A program made the translations under genes and the position numbers. This document shows, one piece after another, positions 4,871 through 43,911 of a DNA stretch of 64,000 nucleotides. Below the pieces are notes generated by a model. The model was not told the DNA's origin. It saw only the letters and a list, made by a program, of their open reading frames with translations, and did not search any database. Position 1 is the stretch's first letter. Each line of letters starts with the position of its first letter. This stretch comes from Psammoneis japonica. Its lineage: Eukaryota. Location: the NCBI GenBank assembly GCA_008632985.1, contig QPGO01000039.1, forward strand, positions 248,001-312,000. Reading direction: 5' to 3'.

Positions 4871-5049
4871 TACTTTCCCCTTCTCCCAGCGACTTGCGAC
4901 AATTGCATCCGTCGCGGGAGCTACTCAGATGCCAATAATCAGACACGAGAGACTATTCTCAGAGAATGACAACGCCACCAGAACATAAGAGACGCACATC
5001 GGAGCTAGCAAAATGAGAAGATTCTAAAACATTAATTTTTATGAATGAA

Positions 5050-8046: not shown

Positions 8047-10439
8047 TTATATACAACAGAACTTCTTTCGCAGCAGAGCAGGAAAAGCGAGACGTAAGCA
8101 AGGGAAGGGTGAAGGAGCAACAACAAGAAGTAGTTCAACCGACAAAGCGCCACGTCTCTTGTGACGGAAAAACTGAAGGGGTCTTGCGAACTTCTTTCGA
8201 ATTTAGTAGAAATGACTCCTTTCTAAGTACGATAAACAGGTCATTTATTGGATTCTTGAATGTAACAAAAGACATACTGTATGTACAGTAGTCTAAAAAG
8301 TACAGTATGAATGAAAATGACCCTCCACGTCAGCTTCTTTTACTTATGCTCTACTACGTCATAAACTGTTTGTGATGCTCACCCTGCGGCGGTGCTAGAG
8401 AGCTATCGCGCAAAAGGGACACGTGTGACGTCCAGCCCCGCCCTGCCGTGTCTCGCGTGCATCATGATGTGCCCATGTGGTTGTCAGAAAGGAGAGAAGT
8501 GAACAAACATGTTGCACCTGGCATAGTTCGCCTTCTCCAAGTGTTCTTTGTACACAAAGACTTGAGACTTGCTCTCATTTGGGGACCAGCCAGCAACAAC
8601 CTGCTCACAGCACAAAAACCCCCAATCTTCTTTGCTCTCCCTGCCGGCTCTTCCCACTCTTGCTCACTCAGCCAGCTTTTTCGTGGCTTGTTTTGTTGGG
8701 GCAACAATGCTGGCAAAAAGTCATCCAATGCCCCACTCTTTCTCACAAAAACAGTTTGAGGCCATTGGCCTCATGACTGTGCCTCTTGAAGCCAACAACC
8801 CCATGTGGAAAGCTGCAAAGCAAAGAACAAGAACGAGGAGGGCACATTGCCAGCACAAAAAGGCTGTGTGCACCAAGGCTGCGCTTCTTGTCTTCATGGC
8901 TTTGTTTTGCAAAATTTACAAAGATCAATGACCACAGACACAAGACACAAGAGAGCTCATTTTGTGATGCTAGCTTGCATCAGAAACAAGCACCACAAAA
9001 GCTGTCTGGTGTGTGCACTGGCCTTTCTTTGAGGAGCAAATGGGGCAAAAGCAAAAAAAAAAAAGAAAGCCACATGGGGGAGCAGAAGACAAAGCTGCAG
9101 AAAGCTGCAGAAAGCTGCACTCAAGATCATTTGGGGCAAACAATGTGCAACAAACACAGTCAACTCCTTGCCTTTGCTGTTCTCAGCACGCGCTGCACGG
9201 GGGCCAGCATCCAGAAGAGGCTGGCAGGGGGAAGTGCCTGGGGAGAGCTTGGGGCCAACACAAGCAACAGACAACAGCTGAGACTCTTGGTTTGGGAGTG
9301 GAGTTTGGCAGTGCAGATGGTTTGAAGAGGCAAGCTGTTTGCTCCTCTTGAGGTGCCCCCCTTCTTCTTGGCATTGGGGCGCACTTAAATCTGGCTGCAT
9401 TTCAGGTGGTTCTTCCCCACCAAATCATGGCCCTGAAGTTTCCAATGCAAAACACTGGCAAGAAAGAGAAAGTCAACAGGAATGAGGCAAAAGACAAAAC
9501 AGCATGAGTTGCAAAGAAACTGTGTGGGTGACAAATTTGCAAGCAGAGGCCTGCCGCCATGGCATGGAAAAGGAAGAAGGAAAAGCTGATGAAAGCAATT
9601 GAAATCTGCTGGTGATGGGGTCACCATTTGCACTTTAAGAAAATTTCAAGCTGTGCTGAGTGCAGAGTCTTTTGGCTGCAGCCCTGTGATGGAGAATTTC
9701 AAGAGCTGTGGCTGTGCACCAAGCACTGTGTCACAAGGGTGATTTGCTGATGTTGCTCTGCACTCCAGTGGGGCCTTGTCACACTGCATCTTCCACAACA
9801 TGGGAAGAACAGAAAGCTTGTTGACAACTGGGGCAAGAAAGACAAATGTGGGTCAAGATGCAGCAGAGCAGTTGACACTGTGCACACAGCAATCCACTGC
9901 ACCCCACTCCCAACTGGAAGGTCTGTCAGTTGTTTGGAAAGAGGAGAAGAGAACAAGCCACCCTGTGCCCACCCTGCTCCCAACTGGGAGGTCTGTTGGT
10001 TGCATGGAAAGAGAAAGAGAAGCCTGGGCCCATCAGATCACAGAGAGCCACTTGCCTGAGGCACAAGCCATTGCAGCTGCAATGGGCTCAGAGCATCCTG
10101 TGCTGGTCGTTGTGGCACGTTGTTGCCTTTGACCTTGTGAACAGCTGATCCCCACAATTTCTTGTGCAAAACAAGCCTTTTTGAAAATGATGCACTGTGG
10201 CGGCAATCTTTTTGTCAAGCTGTGCACTGATGAAAAAGCAGTGCGTCATGGCATGGCTGTGCTCTTGAGAGTCTCATTGCCCACACAACACCATCATCAT
10301 GCAAAGTCATTTCTAGAATTTGGACGCCAACAATGGACGAGTCATCCCAGGAATTTTGGTCTTGTGTGCTGTGTGGCATCACTTCATGGTTTGAAGCTGT
10401 TTCTAGAATGCAATCAAAATGCAGACATGATTGGGAAGA

Positions 10440-12950
10440 GGTCAAAAGGAAGTTGTCTCATGGTGTGCAGCTGTTGGGTGCATTGAGGAACGGCTCATGA
10501 TGCTTGTCAAAAATCATTGCTTCAATTGTTGCAACATCCGTGGTGCCCCAGCAGTTTTCCCTTGCATCCATTGCCGCACCATTGCAACCCGATGGAAGCA
10601 TGACCGCAAGTTTTCCCGTGTTGAGAAAGGAATTTCCCAAACAACAGTCGTGGCACCACCTGGAGTGCTCCAATTTGTCACCCACATGTCTTTGTGTTCA
10701 GGCAAGCTCAAGCCTCACGAGCGACTCTTGAGTCGATTCCATCAAATGCACACATCTGCATCTGCATGGCCAACCAAAAAGCCAGCTGCAGCCATTGGCA
10801 AAGATGTTGTGCTCAATGCAAACATCCCATTTGGAGCACCAGATGCAAGAGCATTCAGAGAGATTGGACAACACTGAGTTGCAAAACAAAAAGCAGGCAG
10901 GTCCTGAATTGCCAGCAGCCGGCCAGAAGGCTCATCCATTGGTGATTGCACAGAGCTGCAAATCAACAAAGGTGGTGGAAGGAGCACTGGCTGACAAGAA
11001 AAAGGAAGAATGTCCTTGACCGTCAAAGGTGATTGGCTGGGTGTCCGTTCTGTGTGCCTTGACTGTGCCATGCACCAGAAACATCTCATCCCACTCGTCC
11101 ATGCCCGCGCCAAATGCTTGTGCTCCAGGCTTGATCGTCAGTGTCACTCCTTGCAGGATCTGCACTTTTTGTGTCAAATGATGTGGACTTTTGCTCAAAG
11201 GCCAGACTGTGTCAGAGGAGAGAATGTCGCCCACAACCAGTGCAGGAGTCATTGGCCGCATCGTCGGACCAGACGTCATGCCATCCATCAACAACCCAGG
11301 AACCTTTCTGTCTGGCTGCACCAGGAAAGGCTCAAACAGGACGCAGCCAGCTGTGTGGCTGTGTCATCATTTTTGTCCCAAATCTTGGAGTGAACAGTTG
11401 ATGCATTCATGGTGCCCCAGCAGTTTTGCCGTGCATCCACTGCCACCCCTTCACAACCCAATGGAAGTGCAACAGCAAGTTTTCCCATGTCAAGAAAGGA
11501 ATTTCCCAAAACAACAGTCGCGGCACCATCCGGAGCATTCCAATTCATTGTGCACATGTCTTTGTGTTCAGCCAAGCCTCAAGAGCAACTCTTGAATCGA
11601 CTCCATTGAATGTGTGTGCCTGCATCTGCATGGCCAACCAACAAACCAGCTGCGTTGGCAAAGATGTTGCATGCACTCAATGTCAATGTCCCATTTGGGA
11701 TGCCAGATGTGAGAGCATTTGGAGAGATTGGACAATGCTGAGTTGCAAAGAAAAAAGCAGCCAGAAGGCTCGTCCGTTGGTGATTGCACAGTGCTGCAGG
11801 TCAACAAAGGTGGTGGAAGGAGCACTGGCTGATGAGAAAAAGGATGAAAGCCCTTGGCCATCAAAGGTGATTGGCCAGGCTTCCGTTCTGTGTGCCTTGA
11901 CTGTGCCATGCACCAAAAACAACTCACCATGGTTGTCCAGCTTGGTGCCAAGTGCTTGCACTCCAGGCTTGATTGTCAGTGTCACTCCTTGTGGGATCTG
12001 AGCTTTCTGCAACAGACAACATAGACTTTTGCTCACAGCCCACATTGTGTCTGACAAAATCACACCACCTGCTGTTGTTCCTTGTTGAGGTGGTGCAGGC
12101 TCTGGTGCAGGATGCACCAATGAAGGTCCGGGTGCAGCCTTTGTTGGTTGAGGAGTCGGCGGCATTGTTGTTGGAGAAGGAGTCAGTTCAGGAGTTGGAG
12201 GCATTGTTGTCAGAGAAGGAGTTGCTTGTGGAGTTGGTTGCACTGTTGTTGGAGAAGGAGTCGGTTCAGGCATTGGCGGCATTGTCATCAGAGAAGGAGT
12301 TGCTTCTGGGCTTGGCTGCGTTGTTGTCAGAGAAGGAGTTGCTTCTGGAGTTGGCTCAAGAGTCATCTTGCCAACAGAAGACAGAACTGTTGGCTGCATT
12401 GTTGCCAAAACAGGAGTCGCTTCTGGTGTTGGGGGCAGAGATGTTTGTCCTGTGGAGAGCAGTTTGGTTTGTCGGTTTGTCTGTTGTTGCAGCTGGGACA
12501 GAAGTGCTCAGGGCAAGATTTGGCTCATCTGTTGGCGCATTTGAGGTGCCAGGACAGTCAGAGATGAGGTGCCAGGCTCCTCTGTTGCACCTTCAAATCA
12601 ACCGGATCAATTGGGGGAGAAGTTGACCCAGAGCTGTTGGCAGGTGCCAGACAAAAACTCTCCATTGCCACTTTGGAAGAGCAGAGCACCAATGACAGTG
12701 CCCAAAAGCAGGAAAGTTCCAGTGCCAGTGGCAAAGGCAATCCACTTCCATTTCCCACATTTGCGTTGTTCCAGAGATTTGTCTTCCCCAGGTGGTGTCA
12801 TCTCAACTGCCTCAGCTTCTTGCACCAATTGGGCAGTGACTTGAATGTCTGTGCTTTCTTGAATTGGAGCATTGTCTGGTCATTGTTGGGTTGTGAACAC
12901 TGTAAAATCCCCTTTGCCGTCAAGTCCACCATCCCAACAAGCACCAGGGC
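10440..12950 (-). pseudogene. Decayed membrane-anchored surface protein: TM segment, Pro/Thr repeats, two tandem beta-helix-associated domains
   Basis: TM WIAFATGTGTFLLLGTVIGALLF and a PTPSPT repeat tract. Two copies of ILSDTxW..SKS....QK.QI.QGVTLTIKPG...FLVHGTVKAH.T...PITFDG. Many frameshifts and stops. Confidence 0.65.
12161..12360. repeat. 39-bp (13-codon) tandem repeat encoding Pro/Thr-rich linker, ~5 units
   Basis: Units such as ggcattgttgttggagaaggagtcagttcaggagttgga and ggcattgttgtcagagaaggagttgcttgtggagttggt. Confidence 0.8.
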
Positions 12951-14711
12951 ACTGCTCTTTCTCCTCCATTGCACTCAGAGACACAGGTTGATGAGTTGGT
13001 CATGGGTTCTCAATGCTGCAGTTTGTGTGGCTTGCTTCTTGGTGGCAAGAAGTCCATTTCTTCTTGTGTTTTGCAACCTTTTCCTTTTCAAGAGAGCTGC
13101 TGGCATTTGCTTCCAAATCGGGAAACACAGATGCAAAATCGCCGTGATCAGGGTCACTTGGGCAAAATGTGTCACGATCAAACTTTTCATGGCTCCGTTT
13201 CATGTGGCTGCGTGAAGATCGGTGCACTTCCTTCTTGTGGTGATGATGGTCATGTCTCTCCTCTTTCTTCACAGATGGCAACCTTGATTGTGGAACAGGC
13301 TGAAATTGCTGCCAATGACACTGGACTTGGCGCTAAGACACGTGCAAATGATGGATCGTTCATGTGGGCACCGGGTGCACAGGGCACTTGCAGTTCAGAC
13401 GATCCTGGCCAAAGCAAGCAGTGCACAGGCGGTCTCCACACTGCACTGCACAGCATGAGCAGCCACCTGGTGTTTGGTCCTTCTTCACAGAGACAAGATT
13501 TGAAGATGAAGATGAAAGGGAGGAGAGAGCCTCTCTTGCACCTGGCAAAAAAAGTGTCTCTTTCAACTGCTCTTTGCACAGTCTTGTTTGGCACATGTGC
13601 CACACCAGCTTGCAAAAAAAAAAAGTGTGCAGAGGCCAGCAAAGAGCAGCTCCTTGTGTGCAGAATTCCACAGGCCCATGCCATGCATGACCCAACCTGG
13701 GACTGGAGTGTGTCTGTTTCCCCCCAAAGCCCTTCACTTTTTTGAGATGGCTTTGTCGTGGCGCAACGTGCTTGATTGAGCACATCAAGCTTGTTTCTTT
13801 CTGGCAAAAAGACATTGTGAGGCTGGTGGTGGCCTCAGAGGTGCCTTCATCTCCAGGTTAGTCCTCATGCCCCATGCTGCATTGTGAGACATCAGAGCTT
13901 TTTTTGTCATGGTGTGCCACATGATTTGCTCTGACATTTCTGTGTGCTCTCTTCTGCAGTTTTTCACCATCTTCCTTGTTTTCTTGCATTGGGGCAAAGG
14001 CTTTTGGTGCCTCAAACCTGCCAGAGAACAAAAGCACCCAGGCAAACTGGAAATGATGTGCTTTGGGTGAGGAGGAGACATCTGCACATTTGAAAAATCA
14101 TCTCTTTTTTTCTGCTGGTGATCGGTGATCACCCACGCCAGCATGGCTGTCTCAAGGAGCAGCTTTGCTGCAGAGCCTGTGTGCAGCAGAGTTCTGTGTC
14201 ACTGATGCCACATGCAGTGCAGGGCTGGTGCATCCTCTGTGCAGCAGCAGTGTGCACCCACACCAGTGGCCAGTGGCTGGCAGCTCACAGAGTCAGTCAG
14301 TCCAAGAGCACACAACAAGAGTGTGCAGCATTCGTGCCAAGGCTGTGCTGCTCATGGCTTTTCTCTTGCCAAATTGCTGCCTTGATTCTTTCATGCTGGC
14401 TGGCAGCAGGGGGGCAAGGAAGAAGGTTGTGTGTTCATTTTGGGAGCATCAGCACATGAGAGTTCCAGATGGCACAAGATGAAGCTGCCTCTCTGGGGGG
14501 GCTCCTGCTGGCACTGGGCTCAAGGCCACAAAACAACCATGGTTGTCACTTTCTCACTTTTCCAGCATTGTTGGAACAGGAACATTGATCACTGTGACTA
14601 GATCACACTCCAAGACTCCTGTGCATTCTGACACCAAGTCACGTTTTTGTGGTTGGTCACACGGAAAAATTCAAGTCAGAAGCACAAAAAACATGCCAGA
14701 GCCTGTGCCAC

Positions 14712-14872
14712 CAGTGGCGTAGAATGGTTCAGGGTGTGCACAAATTTTGCACCACAGTGGCGCATGTGATTTTTATGCAAGTTTCCACATGCGCCCAGTG
14801 GCGTAGACCCAGTGCAAAAGCAACAAATTTTTGAAGTTTTGTGGCGTACAAAGTCAGTGTGTTGTGGCGTAG
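14712..14872 (+). repeat. Array of five (CA)GTGGCGTA motifs, probable transposon subterminal repeats
   Basis: GTGGCG starts at 14714, 14757, 14798, 14841 and 14864. Confidence 0.55.
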
Positions 14873-16291
14873 ATTCGACATCAACAAGGCTTTGCGCAAC
14901 ACTCGCAACAACCAAGACACGCTCGCAAAATCTCGCTCCCACTTTTTCACACGTTGCAGCTGATGTGGTGTTGTTCATTCGTCTCACTCGTTTTCTCATC
15001 GTGGAACCTCCTGATGACACAGGGTGTCTTTCAGGCATGTGCATCGGTCTGATTGCCCCCCCTCTTTGGGCAAGAATGGGGTGTGTGGTTTGCTTCTTGA
15101 AGACACCAGACCAGCCACAAGGAGCTTGCAGTGGAGAGCTGGCAAGCAAAGCACTGGGCTGCGCCACAAGGCACTGGCTGATGGGACAGCATTGGGCAAG
15201 CACAACCACAAGCATTTTCCTGAGGGCACTTTGCACCACATGTGACAAAGCCAGAAACACGGACTGAAAAACACAGACAGAGCCAGGTTTTGCTCAACTG
15301 GCCACCCAGAATTCAAGCAGGGAGGGTGCAGCCGGAATGAAGAAGGCTGCAGGTCAATTTGAGGTCCCAGTGGGAACTTGCTTTGCATGTTTGTTGACAG
15401 CCTGCTGCAGAAGCCATGGCTGCACTGGAAATCCACAAAGGTGGCAGTGCGTGATGGGGTGGATCTCGCAAATTCTCTCAAGATTTTGTGATGCATGAGG
15501 CCAAAATTTGGGCGCAGCATCCACAGATGCTTTGGGAGAGATGCTGTGAATTTGTCAAGGCAGGCACTTCTGAAAGCATGGGTGGGGAAGGCCAGTGCTT
15601 GCTGCCAGGGATCTTTGTGAAAATCTTTTGAAGAGGATGACACTGCGTCTTCTTGATTGGAAACTTCAGAGAATTGTTTGAACACAGTGGGGCCAAACCC
15701 GCCAAAGTGTGCATTGAATTTTGGAGAACAAAGAAGACACAGATCCGCAGCAGTGGTGGCCACAAAGCTGGCAGGGCAAGGCTTGGAAAACAGGCTGCCC
15801 AAAAAGCCATGATGGGCTGGCAGCAAAACACTCCTCACAAAAGGTGCCACACAACTCCACAGTTCTCCAGCGTGCTGTGGGAGCTTTGCTGTCAAGCATG
15901 TAAAACCACAGCACCTCAAGTCACAGACAAGCTGCTTTGCAGGCAGAAGCCCAGCCAAGGGCCGCAAGTTGACAGCCCTGCAACATCTTCCCTTTTTCTC
16001 CTTTTTCCTTCTTTTCCTCTCTCTCTTCTCCTTTTTCTCCTTTTCAGTTTATTCTTCTGGGCCGCCTCCGGCGGCCACCTCTTTCATTCTTCCCACATGC
16101 CGAAATCTCGTCACAGGTGGGATCCCAGGACGCCAAGCAAATCGGACGGCGGCACTTGTTGGAACGCACATTCGATCCGCGCGATTGGCCCCTGCGCGGC
16201 GGCTTGCATGAAGAATCGATCATCAGCGGTCCCAGATTTTTCGACACACGATGGGGTGGATACCTAGTAGAAAGGGACTCTAAGAAGAAAA

Positions 16292-18916: not shown

Positions 18917-19039
18917 AGCGTCGCATGTTGATGTCGGTGTCCGACCGACGAAACGCGTGTGCGATCGGAGGTGCGTATCACCCCTGCGACCCGGGGCAAA
19001 ATTGAAAATGTGAGCAGGCAATGAAGTGGTGTGGACTTC

Positions 19040-20000
19040 TCCCATTCACTTCCAACTGCGACGATGTCCAAGAATTGTAAATGCCCAACTGCATGGACAA
19101 GCTCTTGAGGGTTGAATTCATCCAATGTCGGCATTGAAGCATTGTTGCACAATGCCATCCAGAAAAGGTGGTGCTGAGTGTCCACCAGCAAGCAGCAGCC
19201 AACAACAAGTGTTCGGTCGGAGGTTTTGGCTCGCCAATTTCTGTGCTGGTTTGTCAGTGGCAGAGTCAAAAACCAAGGGCTTGAGGACCAAGCTCATCCA
19301 ATTTTTGAGCTGTGTGCAGCATGAAGAAGGGTGCTTGAGAGTGCTGCAATGGCAAGGGCTTGGAGGGTCAAACCCACCCAAGGCCCCAGTTGATGATCTC
19401 TGGCCATGGCATCAAAAAGAAACTGGAAGATGTCATTTGAACCCATCCATTTTTTGTTGGCTGATGTCAAAAAGCAGTTGGTGCAGCACCCAACAGCAGG
19501 AAGCACCTGTGCTGCACCTGTGGGTGCAAGGTGTTGGGGGCGGAACTTGCCCCATTTTGTTGAAGCCACATCGTCAAAAAGAGACAGCAATGGATGGCGT
19601 CCTGTTTTTGCAAACAACTGCAGGTCACTCAAAACAACAGAAAGACAAATGTCCAGCAGTGGCAAGAAAGACCCAAACAACATTGGCAGTTTTTGGGCAC
19701 ACCAAGTGACCCATTGTTGGAGCCAGTGTGCCACAGATCAGCACACCAAAAACTCTTTAAGTGTGCACCTCAGCTTTGCAAAAGCCTGCACAGTCTCTTT
19801 GGTGCATTTGCCAGAGCAGCAAGGAGACATTGCACTTTGCTCTGATGATGATCCACTGAGCTCCTCCACACTGTCCCAAACATCTGGTCCAAAATCCATC
19901 CTTCCAACATTTGTCAACCTTGCAAAGCTGTTTGCAACTGAGCCTGGCTGCTGTGGTGGAAAAATGCCTGCAACTTGTGCAGGATGTTGCAGCAATTTTG
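19040..20000 (-). pseudogene. Decayed helical-repeat (RAP-domain/OPR-like) protein gene in hypermutated block C
   Basis: Recurrent F-x-P-Q-x-L motifs across broken frames: KFRPQHLA, LDEFGPQAL, LDEFNPQEL; LFD..A motifs precede some of them. Confidence 0.45.
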
Positions 20001-20389
20001 TTGCGCCATTGTTGCTTTTTTGCTGCTTGGTGAGTTCACATTGCAGTGATCTGATGTGCCCAACAAAGCATGGTGTGTCCTTTGGGCTCATTTTGTTGCC
20101 ACAGCTGTCACACATGGCAAACACTTCATTTGCTCTGTCGGCAGTGCAAAAATTGGTTGGCCTCCAGCAGTGGGGTTGTTGTTGGTGTGATGTCATGTGT
20201 TGGCAAGCTCCTGTCTCATGGACCAGAGGATTGCTTTTAATGATGAGCATTTGGCTGCGAATGATCCATCTGCGTTTGATGCAAACCTGACAATCATGGT
20301 GTGTGCTAACACAAAAGACTGCAGAGCCTTCATCCTGCAGTTTGCACATGCTCTGCATGCCCTTCTTCATGAAGAAGAGACATTCAATG

Positions 20390-20735
20390 CATGTGCATGG
20401 CCCAAAGGTGTTGCAAAAGCTTGAGGGTCCTTCATGGTGAAGGTCAGGTCATCCACATGTGCTGCCATGCATTCACTGTGGTCACCGTTCTGTTGCAACC
20501 AGATTTCGGGTTCGGCGCCCACGGCAAGGGAAGAAACCTTCGGCACGCAAACAATTGGCAAAGCATTCATGCCACCTGAGGCTGGAGCTGCAGAGTCTGT
20601 GTGGGGCCTTGTGGATGACAAGGATGTGTCCTTCCAGCTCACCAAATTTGGGGCCTGCTGCAATGTACAGTTTCTCCTTGGTTGTAGATTCGCATTGGGC
20701 ATTGCCAATGTCGGTTGCCCACAGTCCCAGCTTCC
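20390..20735 (-). mobile_element. Ty1/Copia (CoDi-like) reverse transcriptase fragment, decayed
   Basis: LWATDIGNA..ESTTKEKLYIAAGPKFGELEGHILVIHKA and AEPEIWL..NGDH.EC...HVDDL (YVDD changed to HVDD). Confidence 0.85.
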
Positions 20736-30692: not shown

Positions 30693-32080
30693 GTTGGAGT
30701 TATAATCACGAGAGAGAAACTCTCAGAATAATAGAACAACGACCACAATGACTTCCAACAACGATCGATCGAAACGTGTGTTGTGGTCGGTGGTGGTTGA
30801 GTTTTATTTGCTTCCACGCGTCGTGACATACGTACAGATTAAAGTGCGTGAATGCGCATGTAGATTTCTACGACGAATGGATACGAAACGTTTGTCTGTT
30901 TATCTGTTCAACGGCTTGATTTCGCACGCGTCGTCTCCACTGTCTGCGCACCACTGATTGTCTCCTCTGAGCACACCAACCACCACCACCAACAGAATCT
31001 CTTGTTTTTTTTTTGCAGAAAACAGAGAAGCAAAAAACACAATTCGATTGGTGTGTGTTTTTATGGAATTGGAACAAAAGGACATGATTCTGAATGGCAC
31101 AAAAGGGTTGTCATGGGGGTGTCATGTGTGTGTGTGTCAAGAACAACCTCTTTTGGGGGGGGGGGGAGCTCAGAGCATTTTGCACTGGGCACGCACTCCT
31201 CTCACAGTAAACGCAAGCATTGTTTTTGCTGTTTTTGCGCACTTTTGATTTTTCAATGATGGGGGAGTTTTGCTGCTGGTGCATTTCTTTCCTGCACATG
31301 CCTGTTTCTTCTTCTGTGTGTGTGCAGTGCTTTGTGCCAGCTTGTGCGCGCCACTCTTTTCCATTTTTTTCTTGCCACGTGGTGCTGTCTTGCACACACG
31401 TGCATGCACAGTCTTTTCTTTTTCTTCTTTTGGTCAGAGCACTAAAAAACCATCAAATTGCTTGAGAAAATGGCCTTGGCAGTCTTTTGATTTGGCTTTT
31501 TTTGGGGGGGGAGCTTCCTGCCCGCCAAGCAGTGCACTCTTTTTTGTGCCGGGTCCCGACACTCCACATGCCACAAAACAGTTCTGTGGAAAGAAAACAG
31601 CTGTGCAGCCACCCAGCTCCCAAAAGTCAGGAGGCACAGGCAAGAAACACCGACTTTGACCAGGTGCTCTCAACGCATGCATGTGCTGATGTCATTGCAC
31701 CAAGGGTCATGCAACAACACATGCATGGTGCTGCGCCTTCTTGCAAAATTGCCACAGGCAACAGCAGACAGCAACATGCAGCGCCGCTGTCTGTGTTGTG
31801 GACATTGCATTTGCTCATCATCTCGCTTTCATCGATTGTCTCGAGTCTCTCTGGAGTGTCCCAACATCTCACACAATGAGCTCTCTGCATCTTGCTGTGA
31901 AACAAATCTTGGAGGAACAGGTGGAACAGCCATTGTCTCCTCTGAACATGAAACAGAAAGCTGCAACAAAGGCACTGGGGAAGAGTCGTTGTCCGCAGAA
32001 TAAAGCCAAGAGTTCTGCCTCATGCAGCAAGGAAGACCCCACGCCACCACCAGCAGCACCACCTAAGCAGAAACATGTGA

Positions 32081-34560
32081 TTGGCACCAAGATCTCAAAA
32101 TGGTTCATGTCTTTTCATTGCATCAGACTGGGAGAGAGCAAAAGCCGCAATGAAAAAGCAGATTGACAAGTTGACAACTGGTCATGCATCTTGTGATGGA
32201 TGGAGAGAAGTCATTGAAGGTGGGGACCCGGATGATCTTTGCATGCAGAATGACGTGCACTTGATGCGACTGCGATGCCAGCATCTTGCTGTTGCTCTGG
32301 ACTGCGCATTGAAGAGGCTGCCAGAAGGAAAGACTGCCTGCTGGCCACAGTGTTGCCAGCTGGCCATGGATGATCTTAGCGGTGCAGGTGTTGACTTTGT
32401 AAAAAGTTGCCGAACTGCAGCTGCATGGCATGAGATCTTTGGGCACCTGAATTCATTTCCACACCCACGGCCAAAAGGAAAGGGAGATCCACCGGCATTT
32501 CAAGCGCATCCAAAGATGAAGCAGAAATTCATTGAGTTCATGTCATCCAATCTATCTTGACTTTCTGCTGAGGTGGCCACAGACCACTTCCACGAAACAC
32601 TCGCACAGGAATTCTTAAAGAGAGAGAATGAAGGCCACAGCAAGAACGGGGAAGAAATTCTTCAATCGGAGCGGGAGTTTCTGAATCAGCGCGGATTGCT
32701 TGCCGGGGAAAACCAAAAAATCATCTCCTCCAACACTGTTTCTAATTGGGTGGACCAGTTTGGTTTCAAACATGGACCAAACAAAAAGATGCACCATGTT
32801 GACAATCATGAACGACCGGACAATGTGAGGCGCAGGAATGCAACGATGGTCCGCAGATGCCTCATGAAGGAACAACGTGCCTTGCGCTGGATGCAGCTGC
32901 CAAAAGCCATCGCAACGGACCTCATCGCAGCTGAAGCACTCTAAGCCAAAGTGGGACATGAATGCCAAGTTGATGGGGACAATTTTGTGGAACACCACAT
33001 CAACACAGTCATGGACCCCACCCGTCCAATCCTCACCGAGAAGCTGTCTGTGAAATTTGGGGGGAGCAAAAGCGTGCGCAAGGACCCAAATGAAAAGCCA
33101 GTTATGATCTTTGGACAAGATGAAGCAATTTTCAAGCAGTGCTTGCTCAGCACAAAATCTTGGTCAGGTCCTGATGGTGAAAGACCTCTGCTGCCAAAAG
33201 ATGATGGTGAAGGCGCAATGGAGTCCTTGTTCCAGTGCCACGAGGTTGGCCTCACAAGCGAAGCCAACATGTCACAACAGAAGCTTGCAGAGATAAATGC
33301 AACTCATGCAGGCAAGTGCTGCGCTGATGAAGAAGCCGCCAAAGTGGTGTTTGGCAAAAAGCAACACAAGCCGGAACTGACTGAGAGCCCATTTCTTTGG
33401 GAGTTTGAACATGGTGCCAACAATGAAGGCCACTGGAGCTGCAATCACATGTTGGTCCAGCTGGAGGATTGTGTCAACTGTTTGAAGGTGATGCATCCAC
33501 AGCTTGATTGTCCATTCCTCTTTGACCATTCTTGTGGGCATGACAAGCAGAGAGCCGATGGATTGATTTGCAACAAATGCACGATGAATGCAGGCATTTG
33601 CAACAAATGCACGATGAATGCAGGCACCGGCAGCAGCCAGAGCAAAATGCTCCCCACTGTGATTCTGCAGGCAGAGGGCTTTCGGGGCCCACATGCTGAG
33701 GCAACTGGAGTGCCATCTGCAGGATCAATGCAGACAATGGTTTTTGGTGAGAATGACAAGGGACCACATTGGATGACACTGGAGCAACGACAAGCCGGGA
33801 AGTGTGTTGCACCTGTTGAAGGAGAAACTGAAGCTCAGAAGTTTTTGCACCCTGAACTCCATGACAAACTCCTGCAAAAGAATGTCAAGAACATCAGGGG
33901 CAAGAAGAAGGATGAGTTGATTGACACAGCCAAGATTGACAATGCACCTGTGGAAGAAACAGTTCAAAAAGTGAAGTGTGGATGGCGCAACAAAGCAAAA
34001 GGCTTGAAGCAAATCTTGCGCGAGCATGGATTCATTGATCTGAACAACCCCAGCATGTGCACAATGGATGGCACGAAGGGTGCAGACGGTGAGACTGACA
34101 AGTCCATGTCTCTGCTGCGCTTGATGTCTGCTTGCAATGATTTTGTCAATGAGGAGATGTTGTTGCAAACGATGGGTCAAAAAATGGGTGCAACAATCGA
34201 TCGAACGCCCAAGTGTCATCCAGAAATGGCTGGGGAAGGCACAGAATGTTCCTGGGGATTGGCAAAGCAACACTGTCATCTGCAACCTTTGTCAAGGAAA
34301 AGGGGAAAGAAGGGCTTTAGAGCACTGGTGTGAGAATCATTGTCGGCCGATGCACTCACCACACCAAGAGAATCCACAAGTTTTCTCGATGCATTTGACG
34401 ATGCATTTGTGCGGTTCTTTCACAGCCTGACATCTCTCAAGAGATCAAGCAGGATGCCATGTCTCTGGAGGCAATTGAAAAACTTGTCAAGGAGTTCAAA
34501 GAGCACTGCAGTGTGGTTGACTTTGACAAGGGTTTCATTGTGGGGTCGCTCGTCAGGACG
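32081..34560 (+). mobile_element. Decayed DDE transposase of the IS630-Tc1-mariner superfamily
   Basis: IFGQDEAIFKQ (D1), FLFDHSCGH (D2), TPKCHPEMAGEGTECSWGLAK (E region), GWRNKAKGLKQILREHG. In-frame stops at ~32560 and ~32944. Confidence 0.75.
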
Positions 34561-34599
34561 GAGGAGTCATCACAACAGATGTCAATCTTGAACATCAAT

Positions 34600-36900
34600 T
34601 GTTTGACATGTCTTGTTGCTGACGTGTTTGGGTCTTTTGCTTCAGACCATTGCATGGCAAATGAATTTTCCCACCAGTTGCACAGGATCAATGCAACATC
34701 CAGGTTGGCTGCATGACAAGCTGCACCCAAACATCATGCCCCACCGACACGAAACATGAAAACAACCAAGGCTTCTGCTTGTCATCTGCAGGGAGCTTTG
34801 CCGCAGCCTGCTGGTTGAAATTCACATTGCAGTGCAGGTCTTGATTGAGACAGTTGTTGAGTGGCATTGCCAATGGGGTGTCACCAATTGGATGATGGCC
34901 GCACATTTGTCTCGTGCTTGGACAGTCATGACACAGATGAAGTTCAGGCAAGATCCAGTGCTTGTGAATGCCTTCTTTCTTCATCCACTCAATTGTGTCC
35001 TTTGCTGTCATCAATGACAGAGCGTCATGCCAAAAATGCCAGTTGTCCTTGTGCACCATCCTTTTGAACGCCTCCTTGCTTGCTTCATGTGTGGTGACAG
35101 GTTCCAGCTGTTTGCAAAAGTTGAGTTGGAGCAAGCTTTGTCTTGTCCCAATGTTCTGGGATGCAAACAGCAGTGTTGCCAGTGACGGGATCCTTTGCTT
35201 CTTTCTGCTGCAAATCCAGAAGTCCAAGGCACATCAGATGTTGAGTCAAGAAGTGTCCCATTGGAGTTTTCATTGCAATTTTCTTGACTTGTGGTTTTCA
35301 CTTTGACAATTTTGGATTTCATTTGCTTGACAAGGGAATGGACAGCTGAGCAGAGCAGAGTGCAATTTAAGGCCCTGCGCGAATTAAGGCCCTTGTGCTG
35401 TCAGGCTCAAATGATGGATTCGAGGTGCGAGCTCCACAAAAACAGCGCGGGAACAGCGCGCAACAAATGGTCAATGGCTGTTTCCACCTGCAGCAAAGCT
35501 GCAAAAAAAAGACTGTGCCACCACAAATGGAGGTCTGAATGAACAACACTGTGCCAATCCTCATCATGTTGATGCATGAATGGATCCTGAGCAGCTTCAT
35601 CACTGCAGTCCATGGATCCATTGACTTGCTCCTCATGGCTCTCCTCTGTTTCTCCAGTGCCTCTCATTGAACTCTTCTGGCTTTTGAAAATTTCAACTGG
35701 TTTCTCCTTGTTGCACTGACCTTCACGAATGATGAAGATGACACAGTCAACAAACATGATGGAGCACATTCTTCCATCTTCAGAGGCTTCTTCGGCGGTG
35801 CCATGACACATCTTTTATGTCGTGTTGATGCAATGTGGGGATCCTGTGCAGGACACAGCACTGATTCCATGCATGTGATGTGGAAGGCCTTAAATCACAA
35901 CCATGTTGTCATTCTCACTCATCGGACATTTTGGTTCACACGCCAAAACTCATCAACCACGCAGATTTGAAAAAGCGGAGCAGCAACTTTTTTCTGACAA
36001 GTTCAGCGAGATCTTTCATGTGAATGCACAAAAGTGCAAAATTCATGCGTGGCCGCATTGTGTTGTCTTCACAGATGCAGCTCTTAGCTGGGCCTCAAAT
36101 TGCGCTCCGCTCCATGTCACACCATCCTTGCCCGATTCTTTGCGATGATGGTTGACAGCGTGCCAAGCTTGAAGGGTGCTGAACCCATCTTTTTGTGCGT
36201 CTGCAGCAATCTGACCCTCTGTGCTCATTGGCTGAAGCACAGGAGGCTTGCCGTGTGAGTTGCCACCCTTGACAATCCTCTGCTCTCCATCATGCTGCAC
36301 GCCATTTTGTTGGCACTCCAAATGAGCGTGAAAGATGGGAGTGATGTCTGTGCCCTTTGGAAGATTGAGCAAGTTTTTGATTGCAGAAATTGTCCTGTTG
36401 CAACCTTTCCATGAGTCTTCATCATCGAGGTGCACCAAGAACTTTGAAGCAGCATGCAACGGCAATTTTCCGGCACCCAAACAACAAAACTGGCTCTGGC
36501 AATTCATCTCTGTCTTTTCCAACACTGAGTCCAAAGCAACGTCAACCTCTTCAATCTCGCGCGAATCTTCTTCTTGGTCATCATCATCATCGTCGTTGAA
36601 TGTCCGCGTTGGTGTGGGCGTCGGCATCACTTGTGGCGGTGGTGGCTGGGGAGGGTCATGTGATGCAGCAGTTTCCTTGCTTCTTTCCCTCTTGAGCTTG
36701 CAACCGGCCTGTTCCAGCTCCAGGTGATCTGCTTTTCATCGTGCGAAAGGCCGATTTTCTGTGCAGTTTGGCGCAATTGACTCCTTCAAATTTGATCGTT
36801 TCAAAAATCGAAAGAAAGGTCAATTGCGCTGAATGCACAAATTTCCAAATGGTGGGAATCGAGCCCACGCGGAGCACCTGGAGCTGGAACAGGCCAACCA
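34600..36900 (-). mobile_element. Second decayed Tc1/mariner-like transposase, convergent with the first, interrupted by a MITE
   Basis: WHFWHDALSLMTAKDTIEWM...WILPE...PIGDTPLAMPLNNCLNQDLH (SPDLNPLD-like region). N-terminal part IAADAQKDGFS...VNHHRKESG. Confidence 0.6.
35353..36112. mobile_element. 760-bp MITE-like element with 23-bp TIRs and 2-bp target duplication (now CA)
   Basis: Left gagcagagtgcaatttaaggccc; reverse complement of right end gagcggagcgcaatttgaggccc (20/23). Removal restores the frame KDGVT-C-SAVHSLVKQMKSK. Confidence 0.8.
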
Positions 36901-37648
36901 ACACCACCCCTTTTGCCACCTTTGCCTCTGCCTTGTTTGCCTTTCACCATTGCAGTGGCATTGGTTTGTCCAACACTTAAAAGAAAGAACCGCACAGGTC
37001 GATGCAGCAGTGCTTCACTTTTTTAGAAAATGTGGCGCTCAAATGAAGCCAACATGTTGTTCACACAAACACACTGACACACACAATTTTTCCCGCCAAA
37101 ATTTTTTATCATGAAACGAACATCATGTGATCACTGTCAAATTTGCGCACCTCATTTCTTTGATCGGTGAGGAACCGAAATGGTGGAACACTTTTGAGGT
37201 GCTGAACACGATTTGATTTGAATGCATTCTACAGACATGTCGGCGTGCATTGGGGGGGTCATCCCCGCGTTTGTCCTAAAATTGCCGTTGCATTTGAACA
37301 AGGTTTTTTGCAGTGCTTGTTTTTGAATGCAAGAATCATTCATGGTCACACCCGATCGTGCACGAAAACGAGAACCATCAGCACCGCGATCGAAGCACGA
37401 CGATGATGACAATCATCGACATTTCTCAAAAACGCAGTTTGCCGTCTACCAACTTTTCATGCACGCACAATCTTTGACACACAACAAACATAAAACAAAT
37501 GAGAGTTGGCAGACGGACCACCTCCGTCACAGACTTATGGCTTGTTGTTTTCACCACGGTGAAGCACGGTGAAATTCAGGAAAAATCATGCAAAACACGA
37601 GCTGTTCGGCCGAATTCGAGCTAAAAAAAGCAGCAACCGACCACCCTC

Positions 37649-38257
37649 AAGGATGGATCATCTAGATGAGGTATTTTTTTAATTAGCTCGTGATTTTGCA
37701 ATTTCCCCGTGCTTCGCCCGTGTCATTTTGCGATGCCTCTGAGCACCCCCAAACACTTGTGACTGTGTCCAGCCCCCATCAGGGCTGTTAGATCCACATG
37801 TGGGCTACACACCTCAACCTTCAAATGCCAATTGTCGGATTCGGTGCAGTTGTCACATGCGACAAACCGCTGTTTTTCGCCAAAATCGCACTGTTTGTGG
37901 GAGACAAGCCACAACTTTCCAGGAAAAGCCGACAATTGGCGTTTGACTGGCCACTGACATATCTACAGTCGTCAAGCTAAAGATCGCGCATGGTCACAAC
38001 CATGGCCAACACATTCTATGATGTCTTTCGAAGGGACAAAGTTCGACCTATCGCTGAAAATATTTTGTTGGCGAGCGCGCGCATCCAGTACGAAAAATCC
38101 GGGTTTTTTCCAAAAAAATACGAGCTCGCGCGTAAACAGACCTCATCTCGACGATCCATCCTTAAAACAGGTCCGGGGGTCAAAAACTCCGATGTGCGCG
38201 ACCCTCAAGTGTTCCAGTTTCAAAGTCATCGAAAATATCCAAAAACACGGTACTGTA
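37649..38257. repeat. Nested inverted repeats, probable transposon terminus or MITE
   Basis: 37649-37672 vs 38140-38163 (22/24 inverted match). 37822-37841 vs 37926-37945 (18/20). Confidence 0.55.
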
Positions 38258-38652
38258 TAACGGCTACGGTTGTATGTCTGCCATTATTTACGATTGGAAA
38301 TGTCTTTTGTACGTACATACGTACTGTAATTTTGTTTCTTACGGTCTGGTGGTGCATGCGCGCGCAAGCGCGCCTAGGACTTCCCCGACGCTCGCTTCAC
38401 TACAGTAGCACACAACATTCCGATTCTCGCTCTTGATACCGGCATGTTTTAATGTTTTCACGTTGAAGTTGCGTATTCTGCGTTCGAAGACAAGTGAAGA
38501 TCCATTTTTCTCTGCAGCAAGCAACAACAATAACAACAACAACAAGAGACCAGTACATCGTCGTAACCTTCTCCACCGTACATTATCATAGCCGACGTTC
38601 ACTTATACCACAACATCTTCTTCTTTCTGGCGAGAACAAGAACACGTCCACG

Positions 38653-40739: not shown

Positions 40740-43500
40740 CCCTCTTTGGGGTATGGACAACAGCCTTACCACAGGCTATTTGAGCAACTTGGCAATCAAT
40801 TCATTGGCTAGAGAAACCACCCTTTCCGAGTGCTTGTCCCACACGTGGCTTTTTGGTCTCCGGATCTTCAATTTTCAATTGGTCCTTGGACCACGGGTTG
40901 CCATCGGCATGAAGAGGCAGGCTCCTTGCAACGCAGCTTCTGCATTGAAATCGGGATCCAAGGAAGCCCGCAATGCAGCCAGAGCCCCCTGACTGGGAGA
41001 AAACTGAAAGATGCAGAAGCCACATCAGCAAATCATTCCCATCATGCCCAAAGATGCGCCAAAATCACTGGCAATGCTTCCTGGTTGTTGTGAGGTAAAG
41101 TTGATGAATGGCTCCTTTCTGGCCAAATGATGCACAGCCACCACATCACCAAGCTTGGCCCATCCACAATTGAGGACCAAGTCCAGAGGGTGCCACTGGC
41201 ACAGCTGCCGTTGTCACATCAAATTTAAGGGCCCCTTTGGATGCACCTCCTTTGGTGGGCTTGTTGAGTGGTTGCTGGGGGTCAAAGTCCAAGAACAAAC
41301 AGTGTCCAAAAGAAGCCACAAAGATGCAGAGGGGCTTGCATGTGGAGGTTGCAGCAGCCTTCAAAGGAGCCAAAAAGTTTTGCCCAACACTTGCCTCTGC
41401 ACCTTGTTTGGTGACCCAACAGTCAGGAACACTGGCCCCAGCATTGTTGGCTTCAGCTTGCATGGCAACCAACACTGCAGATGTCAAGTCGTCAAGATTG
41501 CACTTTGCATGACAGAGCTTGGGTTTGGGCAGACCACGTTTTGTGGCTTCAGCTCAAGCAGATTCTTTGGCCTTTCCAAGCTTTGCGGTGTTCTTGAAAA
41601 CAAGGTCTCACAGCATGTCTTGGCGTTTGGTGCCTTTCTGGCACTTTGTAGCCAAAAGCAGAGCTGTGTGCTGTGCAAAAAGGCATGGTTTTTGTCTTTG
41701 TGGCGTGGCTTCATCAAGGGGCACGTCATGGTTTCCAGCAAATCATGCTGGTGTCCACAAGTGAGAAAGAGCAATGCAAGTAAGAAAAAGCAATCAACAG
41801 CAAGCAACAGCGCCCTCACGACTAAAACACAAACAACTTTTATGAATGAATGTTCTGTTGGCAAAATGTTCTTCGCCAAACAAGACTGGGTGCAATGGAT
41901 GACCGTTAAGACGACAATGCCAATGACTTGAATTTCCTTTAAATTTGTGTGAATGCACATGTCCTGGAGAGACGGACGCACGTGACCGTTGGTTGGTGGA
42001 AAAAGCCAAGTCATGGAGACCTCGGTTGTCCAGGGACTTGCCAAGATCGCAATTCATCACCCTCAGACTGCCTGCGCTGGTCTGCAGAAGTCCCCACAAC
42101 ACCAGTGGCAGCATGTCCAATGTGCAGCAAAGGACTGCAATGAATTGTTTGCGGACACAGAACGCACGACACAGCGCAATTTTCTGCCGGCACTGACAGG
42201 CAAGACCTTGGCCGACGACGACCCGAGACCAGCCCCATCTGCCCTCCCAATCATGTTTTTGGGACTGTCCATCCCTCGTCCAACTGAGTCCACAGCTCAC
42301 AACTGTGAAGGAAGTGCTCTCGCGTGCTCCCACGTGATCGACTCACTCCATGGCCGCTCCCAGTTCTCTCCTCCGCAGTCCACAAGGACACCACGCGAAA
42401 AGTGAAACAGGAAGCACCTGACAGAAAAGTCAAAGCACATGGGGAGACCCTCAAAACAGTCCTCAGGACCCTGCCTGACCTTCAGGCCAGAGCTGTCAAG
42501 CGCAGCACCAAGACTGGAGCGTGGCTGTCAGTGTGCCCTTTGTCGCTGAACAGCGTAGAACTCTCATGCCAAGAGCTCTGAGGCGCACTCTGTCTGTGGT
42601 GTGGTGGTGCTCCACCCAACGTCCCGGAGTGCTGTGATGGATGTGGATGCAAATTCTTCATGAGTTGCGCCCTTCAGTGCAAGAAGGGCAGCCCAGTCAT
42701 CTCACGACATGACGAAGCACCTGACAACCCAGAGGTGGCCCAATGGGCAAGGCTTGCAAACCTTCCTGCGTGTGCGATGAACCCCTGATCAACCCCACTG
42801 GTTGCAGCACAGGAAGCTCAAGCACCCCAACAGTTCCCCAGGAAACACCACCTCCAACAAGCCCAAGGATGGCGATCGTGGAGACCTTCTTGGCATGAGA
42901 TTTTGGGACAGAAGGACAGACATGGTGACAGATGTTCGCATCCCCAACACGGACGTGTGAAGTCACACCTGTCTAAAACACCAGAAGAAGTCCTGGCAAG
43001 CCACAAATGTGAAAAAAGTGCAAGCACCTTCAACCAGGTCTTGGAACAATGCCGCCACTTCGCACCATTCGTTGCATCATGCGATGGACTTTTTGGCAAA
43101 GAAGCCAAGGCGATGCTCCGCAAGACAGCATCGAAACTTTTCGACAAGTGGCAAAAGCCATGTTCCGAAGCATGCAGCTACATCAATGCAAGGATGAGCA
43201 TCACCACAGTCAGGGCAACCCACCGTTGCCTCAGGGGGTCCCGCATTCCCGCCTCTCAGATCAGCTCTCCAGGCGACCTCAGTGGGAAGATGGCGCAGGT
43301 CTGTCCCTTTGCAGACACTGAACGACCCTGATGCAATCAAACCCCACCTGTCCAGACCATTTGCCTGCCGACAGTCCACAGAGATCACTGACACCATGCC
43401 CAGAAGACAACAAAAACCCATCATCATGCTGAACACGGCGCCAGATTCAGCTCAAAATTCATGCGCACTGCCTGCGAAATTGCACGCGTCAACCACCCCT
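40740..43500. other. Hypermutated block E
   Basis: TA strongly depleted. Left half is an unidentified decayed sequence; right half is a non-LTR relic. Confidence 0.85.
41930..43330 (+). mobile_element. 5'-truncated CRE-like non-LTR retrotransposon (thumb, zinc knuckle, restriction-like endonuclease), decayed
   Basis: GLQKSPQHQWQHVQ, FLPAL, GLSIPRPT, GAWLSV.P, CDGCG..F...ALQCKKG..VISRHDE, RGDLL...FW......DVRI, FAPFVASCDGLFGKEA, ARMSI..VRATHRCLRGSR. Confidence 0.85.
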
Positions 43501-43911
43501 CACTCGTACGGACTGCATTGACCATCACATGACATCCATTTGTTCTCTTCGAGGACGGTGCTTGTAGGAATTTGCACTGAAACCAGCATGTCAATCAGTG
43601 CGATTGGGGCATTCGGAATCGGAAGAATTATGAGAACGCTGGACAGACGCTACGTCTTTTTCATCCGTACGGTACGGCCGTTGATTTGAAATTGTACTGA
43701 CAAACACCGTACAGTACCGGCACCCCAAACGCACAGACTGACAGAATTTATTCGAACAGCGCTGTACTTGCTGTACGGTACAGTATGTTGTGCTGTCCTG
43801 ACACGTCGCTCCCCCGCCGTCCCCCAAACATGCGCAACCTTGCTTGCAACGCCGCCGGTGAATAGGCAGGATCTTATTTTGTTGCCTTCGCACTGTCTGA
43901 GCTTCAGCAGC

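Follow-up and report, generated by a model that had tools for sequence, protein, structure and literature searches.

We describe a 64,000-nucleotide stretch of the Psammoneis japonica genome (contig QPGO01000039.1, positions 248,001 to 312,000 of the forward strand; hereafter the window, numbered from its first letter), in which an open reading frame (ORF) of 460 codons with relatives among putative transposases encodes no tyrosine at all. The evidence presented below makes it very probable that this ORF is what remains of a dead transposase of Tc1/mariner fold, which has lost its tyrosines through a TpA-directed erasure confined to discrete islands of the window, together with a separable decay of CpG dinucleotides. 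Within these islands TA has been converted to TG or CA on both strands; the conversion took place in situ after duplication of the affected DNA, and it is independent of the accompanying CpG loss.

A tyrosine-free transposase pseudogene

The flagged ORF proved to be part of a full-length pseudogene, the features of which, all located on the plus strand, are given here:

32387..34563, plus strand: full-length transposase pseudogene, matching residues 2-688 of ~700-aa relatives (tblastn with three full-length relatives)
32951..34333, plus strand: flagged ORF, 460 codons followed by a TGA stop; central open segment of the pseudogene
32558..32560, plus strand: in-frame stop TGA
32942..32944, plus strand: in-frame stop TAA, among the few TA steps remaining in the island
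34331..34333, plus strand: in-frame stop TGA, at a column holding Arg in 14 of 19 relatives
33566..33625, plus strand: exact in-frame 30-bp tandem duplication, 2 copies, 100% identical

The absence of tyrosine, which the initial annotation had reported from the sequence, was reproduced by our recount (0 of 460 codons), as compared to 2.6-6.7% Tyr in 20 relatives; by our own arithmetic, the chance of encountering no Tyr in 460 codons at ~4% Tyr is ~1e-8. The same holds for the segment 33296-34317 (1022 nt), for which 0 TA and about 19 CG had been claimed and in which we counted 0 TA, 20 CG, 119 TG and 107 CA. Using the TA density of the background DNA of the same window (1612 TA in 40,222 nt), a run of 1022 nt devoid of TA would be expected with a probability of ~1e-18 (own arithmetic). 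Over the entire ORF, three TA (at 33103, 33294 and 34318) and 27 CG are present. When set against the matched coding regions of 33 relatives, the ORF contains 2.2 TA per kb (median of the relatives 38.5, range 19.1-61.7), 19.5 CG per kb (median 33.0, range 8.4-48.5) and 217.6 TG+CA per kb (median 147, maximum 182). Relative to these medians, TA is thus reduced by ~94% and CG by ~41%. The initial annotation had described the erasure of TA as faster or more complete than CpG decay: greater completeness, and not greater speed, is what these values show, and it recurs in all six islands described below.

Of the catalytic motifs, FGQDE, LFDHSCGH and AGEG-E can still be read in the ORF, and alignment to the relatives agrees with each of the four motifs that the initial annotation had given as carrying Tyr in related transposases. 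IFKQY of the relatives reads FKQC in the window, FEYGxNxEGYWxYxHM reads FEHGANNEGHWSCNHM, L-YP reads VMHP and GEGIEYxWG reads GTECSWG. To tabulate the fate of conserved residues, the pseudogene was read through (X at stops) and aligned to 20 relatives, and columns with at least 70% agreement were scored. None of the 16 conserved Tyr columns has kept its residue: eight read Cys (TGY), six His (CAY), one Arg (CGC) and one Val (GTT), the 14 TGY and CAY codons being one transition away from TAY. All other conserved residue classes were kept at 162 of 211 columns (Fisher p=4.7e-10 vs Tyr). Intact homologues with Cys or His at these positions, which had been named as the observation that would speak against erasure, were not encountered. 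Sense-strand A to G changes (8 TGY) and T to C changes (6 CAY) occur in similar numbers, and both strands are therefore affected. Restricted to the flagged ORF, Tyr is kept at 0 of 7 columns and other residues at 135 of 170.

Codons other than those for Tyr bear the same signature. At L255P the window reads CCA, at V89A and V414A GCA, and at I431T ACA, which are the products expected from CTA, GTA and ATA at Leu, Val and Ile columns. Conserved Arg residues are kept at 7 of 19 columns (p=1e-4), and nine of the 12 Arg changes fit the products of CGN codons (five CAY for His, two TGC for Cys and two TGA).

With regard to the integrity of the frame, the pseudogene can be followed in a single frame up to ~34366, where a one-frame shift occurs, and reading through the lesions yields 726 codons with 0 Tyr. 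Three in-frame stops (TGA, TAA and TGA) precede the shift and a fourth, again TGA, lies downstream of it. Two of the TGA stops are located at Arg columns, and the stop at 34331..34333 is, judged from the sequence, consistent with a CGA to TGA change. The 30-bp tandem duplication adds 10 residues that are absent from all aligned relatives; it is probably later than most of the erasure, since both of its copies are identical. The proposal that erasure inactivates proteins by missense changes while keeping frames open is largely supported by the composition of the islands (fewer stops and more long frames, see below), except that the pseudogene itself carries stops and a frameshift.

A further fragment within the same island, read from the opposite strand, was found to be altered in the same manner:

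34691..35233, minus strand: piece of another protein family of diatom type, unrelated to the transposase, 181 codons with 0 Tyr, 0 TA and 8 CG

Its relatives were retrieved at E 1e-27, one of them from the diatom Attheya. Tyr-majority columns are kept at 0 of 7 positions, four of which read CAT, CAC, TGT or TGC, and Arg-majority columns at 0 of 6 positions, with three CAY and one CAG.

TA-erased islands, CpG loss and the timing of erasure

Two-state segmentation of the window on TA density delimited six islands, which together cover 23,778 of 64,000 nt (37% of the window). For each of them, the observed-to-expected ratios (o/e) of TA and CG are indicated (no strand assigned):

3043..4844: island 1, TA o/e 0.03, CG 0.29
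8552..16260: island 2, TA o/e 0.04, CG 0.26; holds the paralogue pair 10495-11216 / 11364-12054
18977..20665: island 3, TA o/e 0.04, CG 0.21
30902..37446: island 4, TA o/e 0.05, CG 0.47, TG 1.67, CA 1.70; holds the flagged ORF
40810..43506: island 5, TA o/e 0.07, CG 0.46; partly multicopy by contig depth
50230..53565: island 6, TA o/e 0.05, CG 0.36

The window overall displays a TA o/e of 0.39 and CA/TG o/e of 1.37-1.38, which conceals two contrasting compartments. Across the individual islands, TA o/e amounts to 0.03-0.07, CG to 0.21-0.47 and TG/CA to 1.5-1.9, whereas the seven background segments range from 0.52 to 0.69 for TA and from 0.92 to 1.02 for CG. Pooled values are TA 0.05, CG 0.36, TG 1.68 and CA 1.75 for the islands, as compared to TA 0.58 and CG 0.97 for the background, corresponding to a ~12-fold TpA depletion. 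The island edges are sharp, with the spacing of TA rising from ~20 bp to >150 bp within one interval. TG and CA counts differ by at most 7% in five of the six islands, the exception being island 5 (239 vs 306), in keeping with an erasure acting on both strands. GC content is nearly equal in islands and background, because TA loss raises it and CG loss lowers it. Stop triplets are reduced in the islands (49/kb vs 69.5/kb in the background); removal of TAA and TAG therefore inflates open frames, and open stretches of at least 100 aa number 42.9 per 10 kb in islands vs 26.6 in the background. Three long island ORFs (350, 297 and 279 aa) look like such chance frames of TG/CA-rich DNA.

To evaluate how TA loss relates to CpG loss, we analyzed 80 metagenome loci encoding relatives of the transposase. 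TA o/e among these loci lies between 0.18 and 0.84 (median ~0.63), none being near 0.05, and in 79 of the 80, which belong to other hosts, it is at least 0.44 even under extreme CpG decay. Five loci (L068, L079, L067, L037 and L047) combine a CG o/e of 0.03-0.15 with a TA o/e of 0.45-0.56, and are presumably decaying under CpG methylation in hosts lacking the TA process. The reverse situation is encountered in L071, a metagenome contig of 1501 nt with a TA o/e of 0.18 and a CG o/e of 0.74. Its composition switches abruptly near nt 361, after which only 6 TA are present (nt 362-1501) with no CpG loss, and its longest TA-free run reaches 486 nt, as compared to a maximum of 204 among the other 79 loci. 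Compared to the 74%-identical locus L011 over nt 362-1122, 14 of 24 TA of L011 read TG or CA in L071 and 0 are kept, while CG numbers 29 in L071 vs 22 in L011; L071 reads FEHGVNAEGCWTCDHM and HPECD. Since L071 has lost TA without CG and other relatives have lost CG without TA, the erasure of TA and the decay of CpG are two different processes, which occur together in the islands of the diatom. The initial annotation had argued that TA loss is not a by-product of 5-methylcytosine (5mC) deamination, and this view gains from three observations: in each of the six islands CG is lost less completely than TA, L071 is depleted in TA and not in CG, and several relatives show the opposite.

The direction and timing of the change can be read from duplicated sequences. 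Only five distinct pairs of intra-window repeats are present. One paralogue pair straddles an island edge, with one copy in the background (20-520) and the other in an island (4390-4890). At the 19 TA of the background copy, the island copy has TG or CA in 10 cases and keeps three; at its 26 CG, the island copy has TG or CA in 12 cases and keeps seven. The duplicate located outside the island was thus spared erasure. A second pair, within island 2, aligns over 686 nt at 80.5% identity with 96 transitions vs 38 transversions. Among its 52 adjacent double differences, 25 place TG opposite CA, the next class comprising three, and such an excess is predicted if a single ancestral TA or CG was resolved in each of the two copies on its own. 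This implies ~73 ancestral sites per kb by our own arithmetic, a density that approximates TA plus CG of intact relatives (38.5 + 33.0 per kb), and on that match, most of the erasure is later than the duplication and occurred within the same genome.

Public reads (run X1, the record of which gives no library type) provide a similar picture. Of the words sampled from 30000-38500, 76% are present in X1, and single-copy contigs (depth ~60) equal the island sequence exactly at 30541-32223 and 34521-35007. Between related X1 contigs and the window, 249 transitions were counted as compared to 46 transversions. Among the differences listed (40 of 304), 10 of the 13 in the high-copy stretch 37284-37855 have TG or CA in the window and TA in other copies, and one contig has CA at 33192/33193 in place of the TG of the window. 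A high-copy repeat at 36414-38216 spans the right edge of island 4, with contig depths of 3600-7500 vs ~60 for single-copy sequence; its copies within one run differ at many sites by TA vs TG/CA, and Tandem Repeats Finder detected no array at this position. With regard to sequence duplication as a possible trigger, contig depth indicates multicopy parts in islands 4 and 5, but the single-copy stretch 30541-32223 is erased too. Island 4 is of mobile origin, and a mobile origin is suggested for island 5 from contig depth.

The 71 TA remaining in the islands are non-random in context, as illustrated by counts in islands and background together with the per-bp ratio of the two:

ATAT: islands 0, background 117, ratio 0
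ATAC/GTAT: islands 0, background 233, ratio 0
ATAG/CTAT: islands 2, background 192, ratio 0.018
GTAC: islands 2, background 158, ratio 0.021
CTAA/TTAG: islands 21, background 127, ratio 0.28
TTAA: islands 13, background 53, ratio 0.42

RTAY seems to be the preferred target, and TA with a T before it or an A after it seems to be spared, on small numbers and with some of the residual TA maybe representing new mutations. Tetranucleotide gains of TG/CA broadly fit these losses, without being decisive.

Possible mechanism, known systems and alternative explanations

Taken together, these results suggest a model in which mobile, mostly repeated and silent DNA would sit in sharply bounded blocks of a diatom nuclear genome, where TpA-directed transitions at the DNA level would turn nearly every TA into TG or CA on both strands, while a separate CpG decay would convert about half to three quarters of CG into TG or CA. 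As all TAY codons contain TA, Tyr would become Cys (TGY) or His (CAY); ATA, GTA and CTA would become ACA, GCA and CCA; TAA and TAG would vanish, lengthening frames in all six phases; and CGN Arg codons would yield His, Cys or TGA. Of this model, the data above document the direction of the changes, their TA specificity, their symmetry across strands, their confinement to islands, their origin in situ after duplication and their independence from CpG loss. Regarding the chemistry, the adenine 3' of T may be deaminated, with A converted to inosine and read as G, as proposed for the chlorarachniophyte Bigelowiella natans. Targeting might rely on silent-chromatin or small-RNA marks on mobile DNA, the role could be one of genome defence, and the CpG part may reflect 5mC deamination on methylated transposons, as in other diatoms. 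Among the mechanisms considered, DNA adenine deamination aimed at silent mobile DNA appears most likely.

Cytosine-targeted DNA hypermutation is an established form of genome defence, as exemplified by fungal repeat-induced point mutation (RIP) and APOBEC enzymes. Like RIP of ascomycetes, the process described here is a heritable, DNA-level transition hypermutation of repeated or mobile DNA that leaves sharp-edged aberrant blocks. Unlike RIP, in which C to T changes at CpA generate TpA and thereby stops, it destroys TpA, and TAA and TAG are lost. In comparison to 5mC-driven CpG decay, the loss of CG to TG/CA is similarly restricted to islands (o/e 0.21-0.47 vs 0.92-1.02) and turns Arg CGN codons into CAY, TGC or TGA; such decay accounts for the CG part only, and TA loss is beyond its reach. 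By analogy to other diatoms, DNA methylation would offer a ready explanation for this CG part alone: CpG methylation of Phaeodactylum transposons is reported to depend on DNMT5a, and diatom DNMT4 is related to the RIP enzyme RID (PMC9998398).

A counterpart directed at adenine or TpA was first described in 2026, in a single alga and with the enzyme not known. According to the main text of that preprint, 230 of 231 mutations found in two integrated viral regions of B. natans mutation-accumulation lines were transitions of the A to G or T to C type, each of them at a TpA, the regions being integrated nucleocytoplasmic large DNA virus (NCLDV) and virophage DNA (Mettrop et al., bioRxiv 10.64898/2026.01.13.699255). 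The TpA mutation rate exceeded background ~1000-fold, in some lines only; 1-kb windows poor in TpA and rich in TpG/CpA were clustered; and DDE endonuclease and reverse-transcriptase domains were enriched among TpA-depleted coding sequences (bioRxiv 10.64898/2026.01.13.699255). An ADAT2-like deaminase was proposed, experimentally untried, and the terms 'CpG', 'diatom', 'flanking' and 'trinucleotide' each have 0 occurrences in the preprint's main text (bioRxiv 10.64898/2026.01.13.699255). As far as that text describes it, the B. natans system shares with the present one the TpA to TpG/CpA transitions, their occurrence on both strands and their restriction to discrete foreign or mobile blocks beside normal genome. 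The host here is a diatom (stramenopile) and not a chlorarachniophyte (rhizarian), and de novo mutation was observed in B. natans, whereas our knowledge of the process derives from its footprint. Furthermore, erasure in the window is far more complete (o/e 0.03-0.07 vs a Rho of 0.45 reported for the NCLDV region), and it affects transposons, with island-specific CpG loss and a visible flank preference (RTAY most erased, TTAA least) beyond what the preprint's main text addresses. In the full-text literature on TpA-to-TpG/CpA hypermutation, coverage of which leaves out subscription journals, the B. natans preprint was the only report found, and none was found for diatoms.

The near-saturated footprint on diatom transposons suggests that the process is widespread in the supergroup of stramenopiles, alveolates and Rhizaria (SAR), and at 37% of the window it shapes a large share of the genome. 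One may go further and tentatively envisage a dedicated adenine-deamination defence of 'reverse RIP' type shared by diatoms and chlorarachniophytes, guided by chromatin or RNA, recognizing mobile DNA, converting all accessible RTAY/TA steps to TG/CA, inactivating proteins via Tyr, Ile, Leu and Val codons without new stops, independent of cytosine methylation and predating the stramenopile-rhizarian split; in this extended form we regard the proposal as possible but doubtful. Sharp borders, the preference for RTAY over TTAA, the separability from CpG loss and the repeat copies still differing by TA vs TG/CA all provide handles on the process, which is of interest for genome defence, mutation spectra and diatom genomics. 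It also carries a risk for annotation, as spurious long ORFs arise in six frames and gene callers may report Tyr-free, Cys/His-rich pseudo-proteins.

Several observations weigh against the interpretation as an island-confined, TpA-directed process acting on mobile DNA. The evidence consists of a footprint, no enzyme, modified base or mutation in real time having been seen, and TA is palindromic, such that an A to G change on one strand looks the same as T to C on its complement. The window was probably assembled from the sample sequenced in X1; this run shows the letters to be present in reads and provides no independent support. Among the environmental relatives, the signature of TA erasure was found in one of 80, on a contig of 1.5 kb. 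GCGC is undepleted (65 in islands vs 98 in background, per-bp ratio 1.12), with other CG contexts at 0.28-0.52, and this retention runs counter to the prediction of simple CpG decay. Finally, outside the two families of island 4, Pfam searches of island ORFs gave no match (0 of 71 of at least 120 aa, 0 of 125 of 70-119 aa), and the transposon nature of the other islands is argued from contig depth (island 5) and composition alone.

As to the base that is attacked, TpA is the preferred site of 5-hydroxymethyluracil in the DNA of dinoflagellates, and T to C changes result from 5-formyluracil. A scheme in which the thymine of TpA is the target, being oxidized by TET/JBP-type enzymes to 5-hydroxymethyl- or 5-formyluracil that mispairs with G or is mis-repaired, yielding T to C and, as seen from the opposite strand, A to G, would draw on this precedent, and the TGY:CAY ratio of 8:6 at a palindromic site fits either base; nothing in the data favours a modified thymine, however, and the sole experimental precedent proposes adenine deamination, itself unproven, for which reasons we consider this scheme unlikely. 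Without any dedicated system, TA could also have been lost slowly through a passive mutation bias that depends on sequence context and affects silent chromatin replicated late or repaired poorly, with CpG decay alongside. The islands are indeed silent-looking, X2 spliced contigs lying on the flanking genes, and TA is already under-represented in the background (o/e 0.58). Such a bias is nevertheless quite improbable in view of the near-total erasure (o/e 0.03-0.07), the step-like edges, the strong flank preference and the 79 of 80 relatives elsewhere that maintain a TA o/e of at least 0.44 despite extreme CpG decay, and the B. natans process, by the account in the preprint's main text, is episodic and ~1000-fold above background. 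With regard to X2, its contigs are spliced at GT..AG and none lies over 31005-37014 or 41222-43625, an absence that carries no weight on expression.

It is very improbable that the TA-poor blocks represent foreign or family-specific DNA retaining a native composition shaped by codon or word avoidance. The original sequence of each island is not known, and a search of viral contigs yielded 64 pattern matches with 0 confirmed relatives of the transposase family, leaving no viral relative for comparison; yet other residues have taken the place of conserved Tyr in the catalytic region (0 of 16 kept), the frame is interrupted by stops and a shift, two families without relation to each other are altered alike on opposite strands, and both the TG-opposite-CA paralogues and the TA-bearing copies in the same genome point to change after duplication. 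A sequencing or assembly artefact, in which modified bases of silent DNA were misread (at TA, A as G; at CG, C as T), might be entertained insofar as X1 may be the same data as the window and the sequencing technology of the window is not on record. It is barely credible given the k-mer contigs of depth ~60 that reproduce the island sequence exactly, the accompanying frameshifts, the clean 30-bp duplication, the paralogue-specific choices between TG and CA and the recurrence of the pattern in an unrelated metagenome contig. Equally remote is an ADAR-like hyper-editing of transposon transcripts (A to I after U) that was fixed by reverse transcription. ADARs do prefer a 5' U, as the preprint's main text notes (bioRxiv 10.64898/2026.01.13.699255). 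However, sense-strand T to C changes (6 of 14 Tyr changes) are about as common as A to G, and non-coding island parts and the opposite-strand gene are equally affected; a fixed RNA-editing footprint is excluded because both strands are hit and the element has a DNA-transposase fold. Adenine deamination directed at TpA thus remains our preferred explanation.

The transposase family and the surrounding genes

Searching a protein collection with the ORF retrieved 86 relatives (best E 1e-99, 42-44% identity); no Pfam domain is listed for any of them, and for three the diatom Fragilaria crotonensis is the named source. Pfam searches of the window ORF and its upstream pieces revealed no transposase domain and nothing else relevant, a DDE family was found in 0 of 24 intact members at E <=0.1, and a family-profile search of Protein Data Bank (PDB) sequences gave no relevant match. 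We therefore turned to structure. The intact relative P0011 was modelled with AlphaFold, and the model (predicted local distance difference test 81.2, predicted template modelling score 0.72) had no Foldseek hit against the PDB at E <=0.001, the best being Mos1 at E 0.12. Using VIA-align on Foldseek's top chains, the model superimposed on the SETMAR transposase domain with Z 13.8 (root-mean-square deviation 3.3, 192 of 197 residues), on Mos1 with Z 13.3-13.5 and on Sleeping Beauty with Z 12.9, the next unrelated entry reaching 5.0. In addition, an ESM Atlas pointer led to DDE_3 clusters (score 0.92; DDE_3 on 43% of the cluster).

On the basis of this model, the family has a predicted catalytic fold of Tc1/mariner type with large insertions, and the label 'transposase' is justified by predicted fold and not by sequence-family membership. 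The remark in the initial annotation that erasure would also remove the TA target sites used by Tc1/mariner elements gains somewhat in relevance from this mariner-like fold. Like SETMAR, Mos1 and Sleeping Beauty, its members are predicted to adopt an RNase H-like DDE/D fold, with the acidic motifs FGQDE, FDHSxGH and AGEGIE. Unlike these, they comprise ~700 aa, their catalytic residues being set apart by long insertions, and match neither a Pfam DDE model nor a PDB sequence. A SAP-like DNA-binding motif follows the second of the catalytic acidic residues and precedes the third (in P0010, P0011 and others), Pfam SAP being detected in 2 of 24 members (E 6.6e-5). As a separate observation, residues 465-499 of the model align to chains of the BiP-bound CDNF C-terminal domain. 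No convincing pair of terminal inverted repeats was found around the pseudogene and no TA target-site duplication was established there; one candidate 20-nt repeat pair, 3.7 kb apart, was found in the relative locus L023 only.

The background of the window contains ordinary spliced genes, one of which adjoins island 4:

28635-30769, minus strand: Sec63-like gene (DnaJ and Sec63 domains, from the precomputed Pfam annotation of its relatives)

This gene shares 67-74% identity with its best named relatives, which come from Attheya, Nitzschia, Pseudo-nitzschia, Thalassiosira, Cyclotella and a Bacillariaceae metagenome-assembled genome, and because of these relatives the host is identified as a diatom and not as Bigelowiella. 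Its intron at 30500-30622 is spliced in X2 contigs, and the gene has a normal TA content even though its 5' end is located within ~130 bp of the island edge at 30902. Elsewhere in the background, at 38830-39801, a second contig near single-copy depth shows many differences of mixed spectrum, and possibly represents the other haplotype of a diploid.

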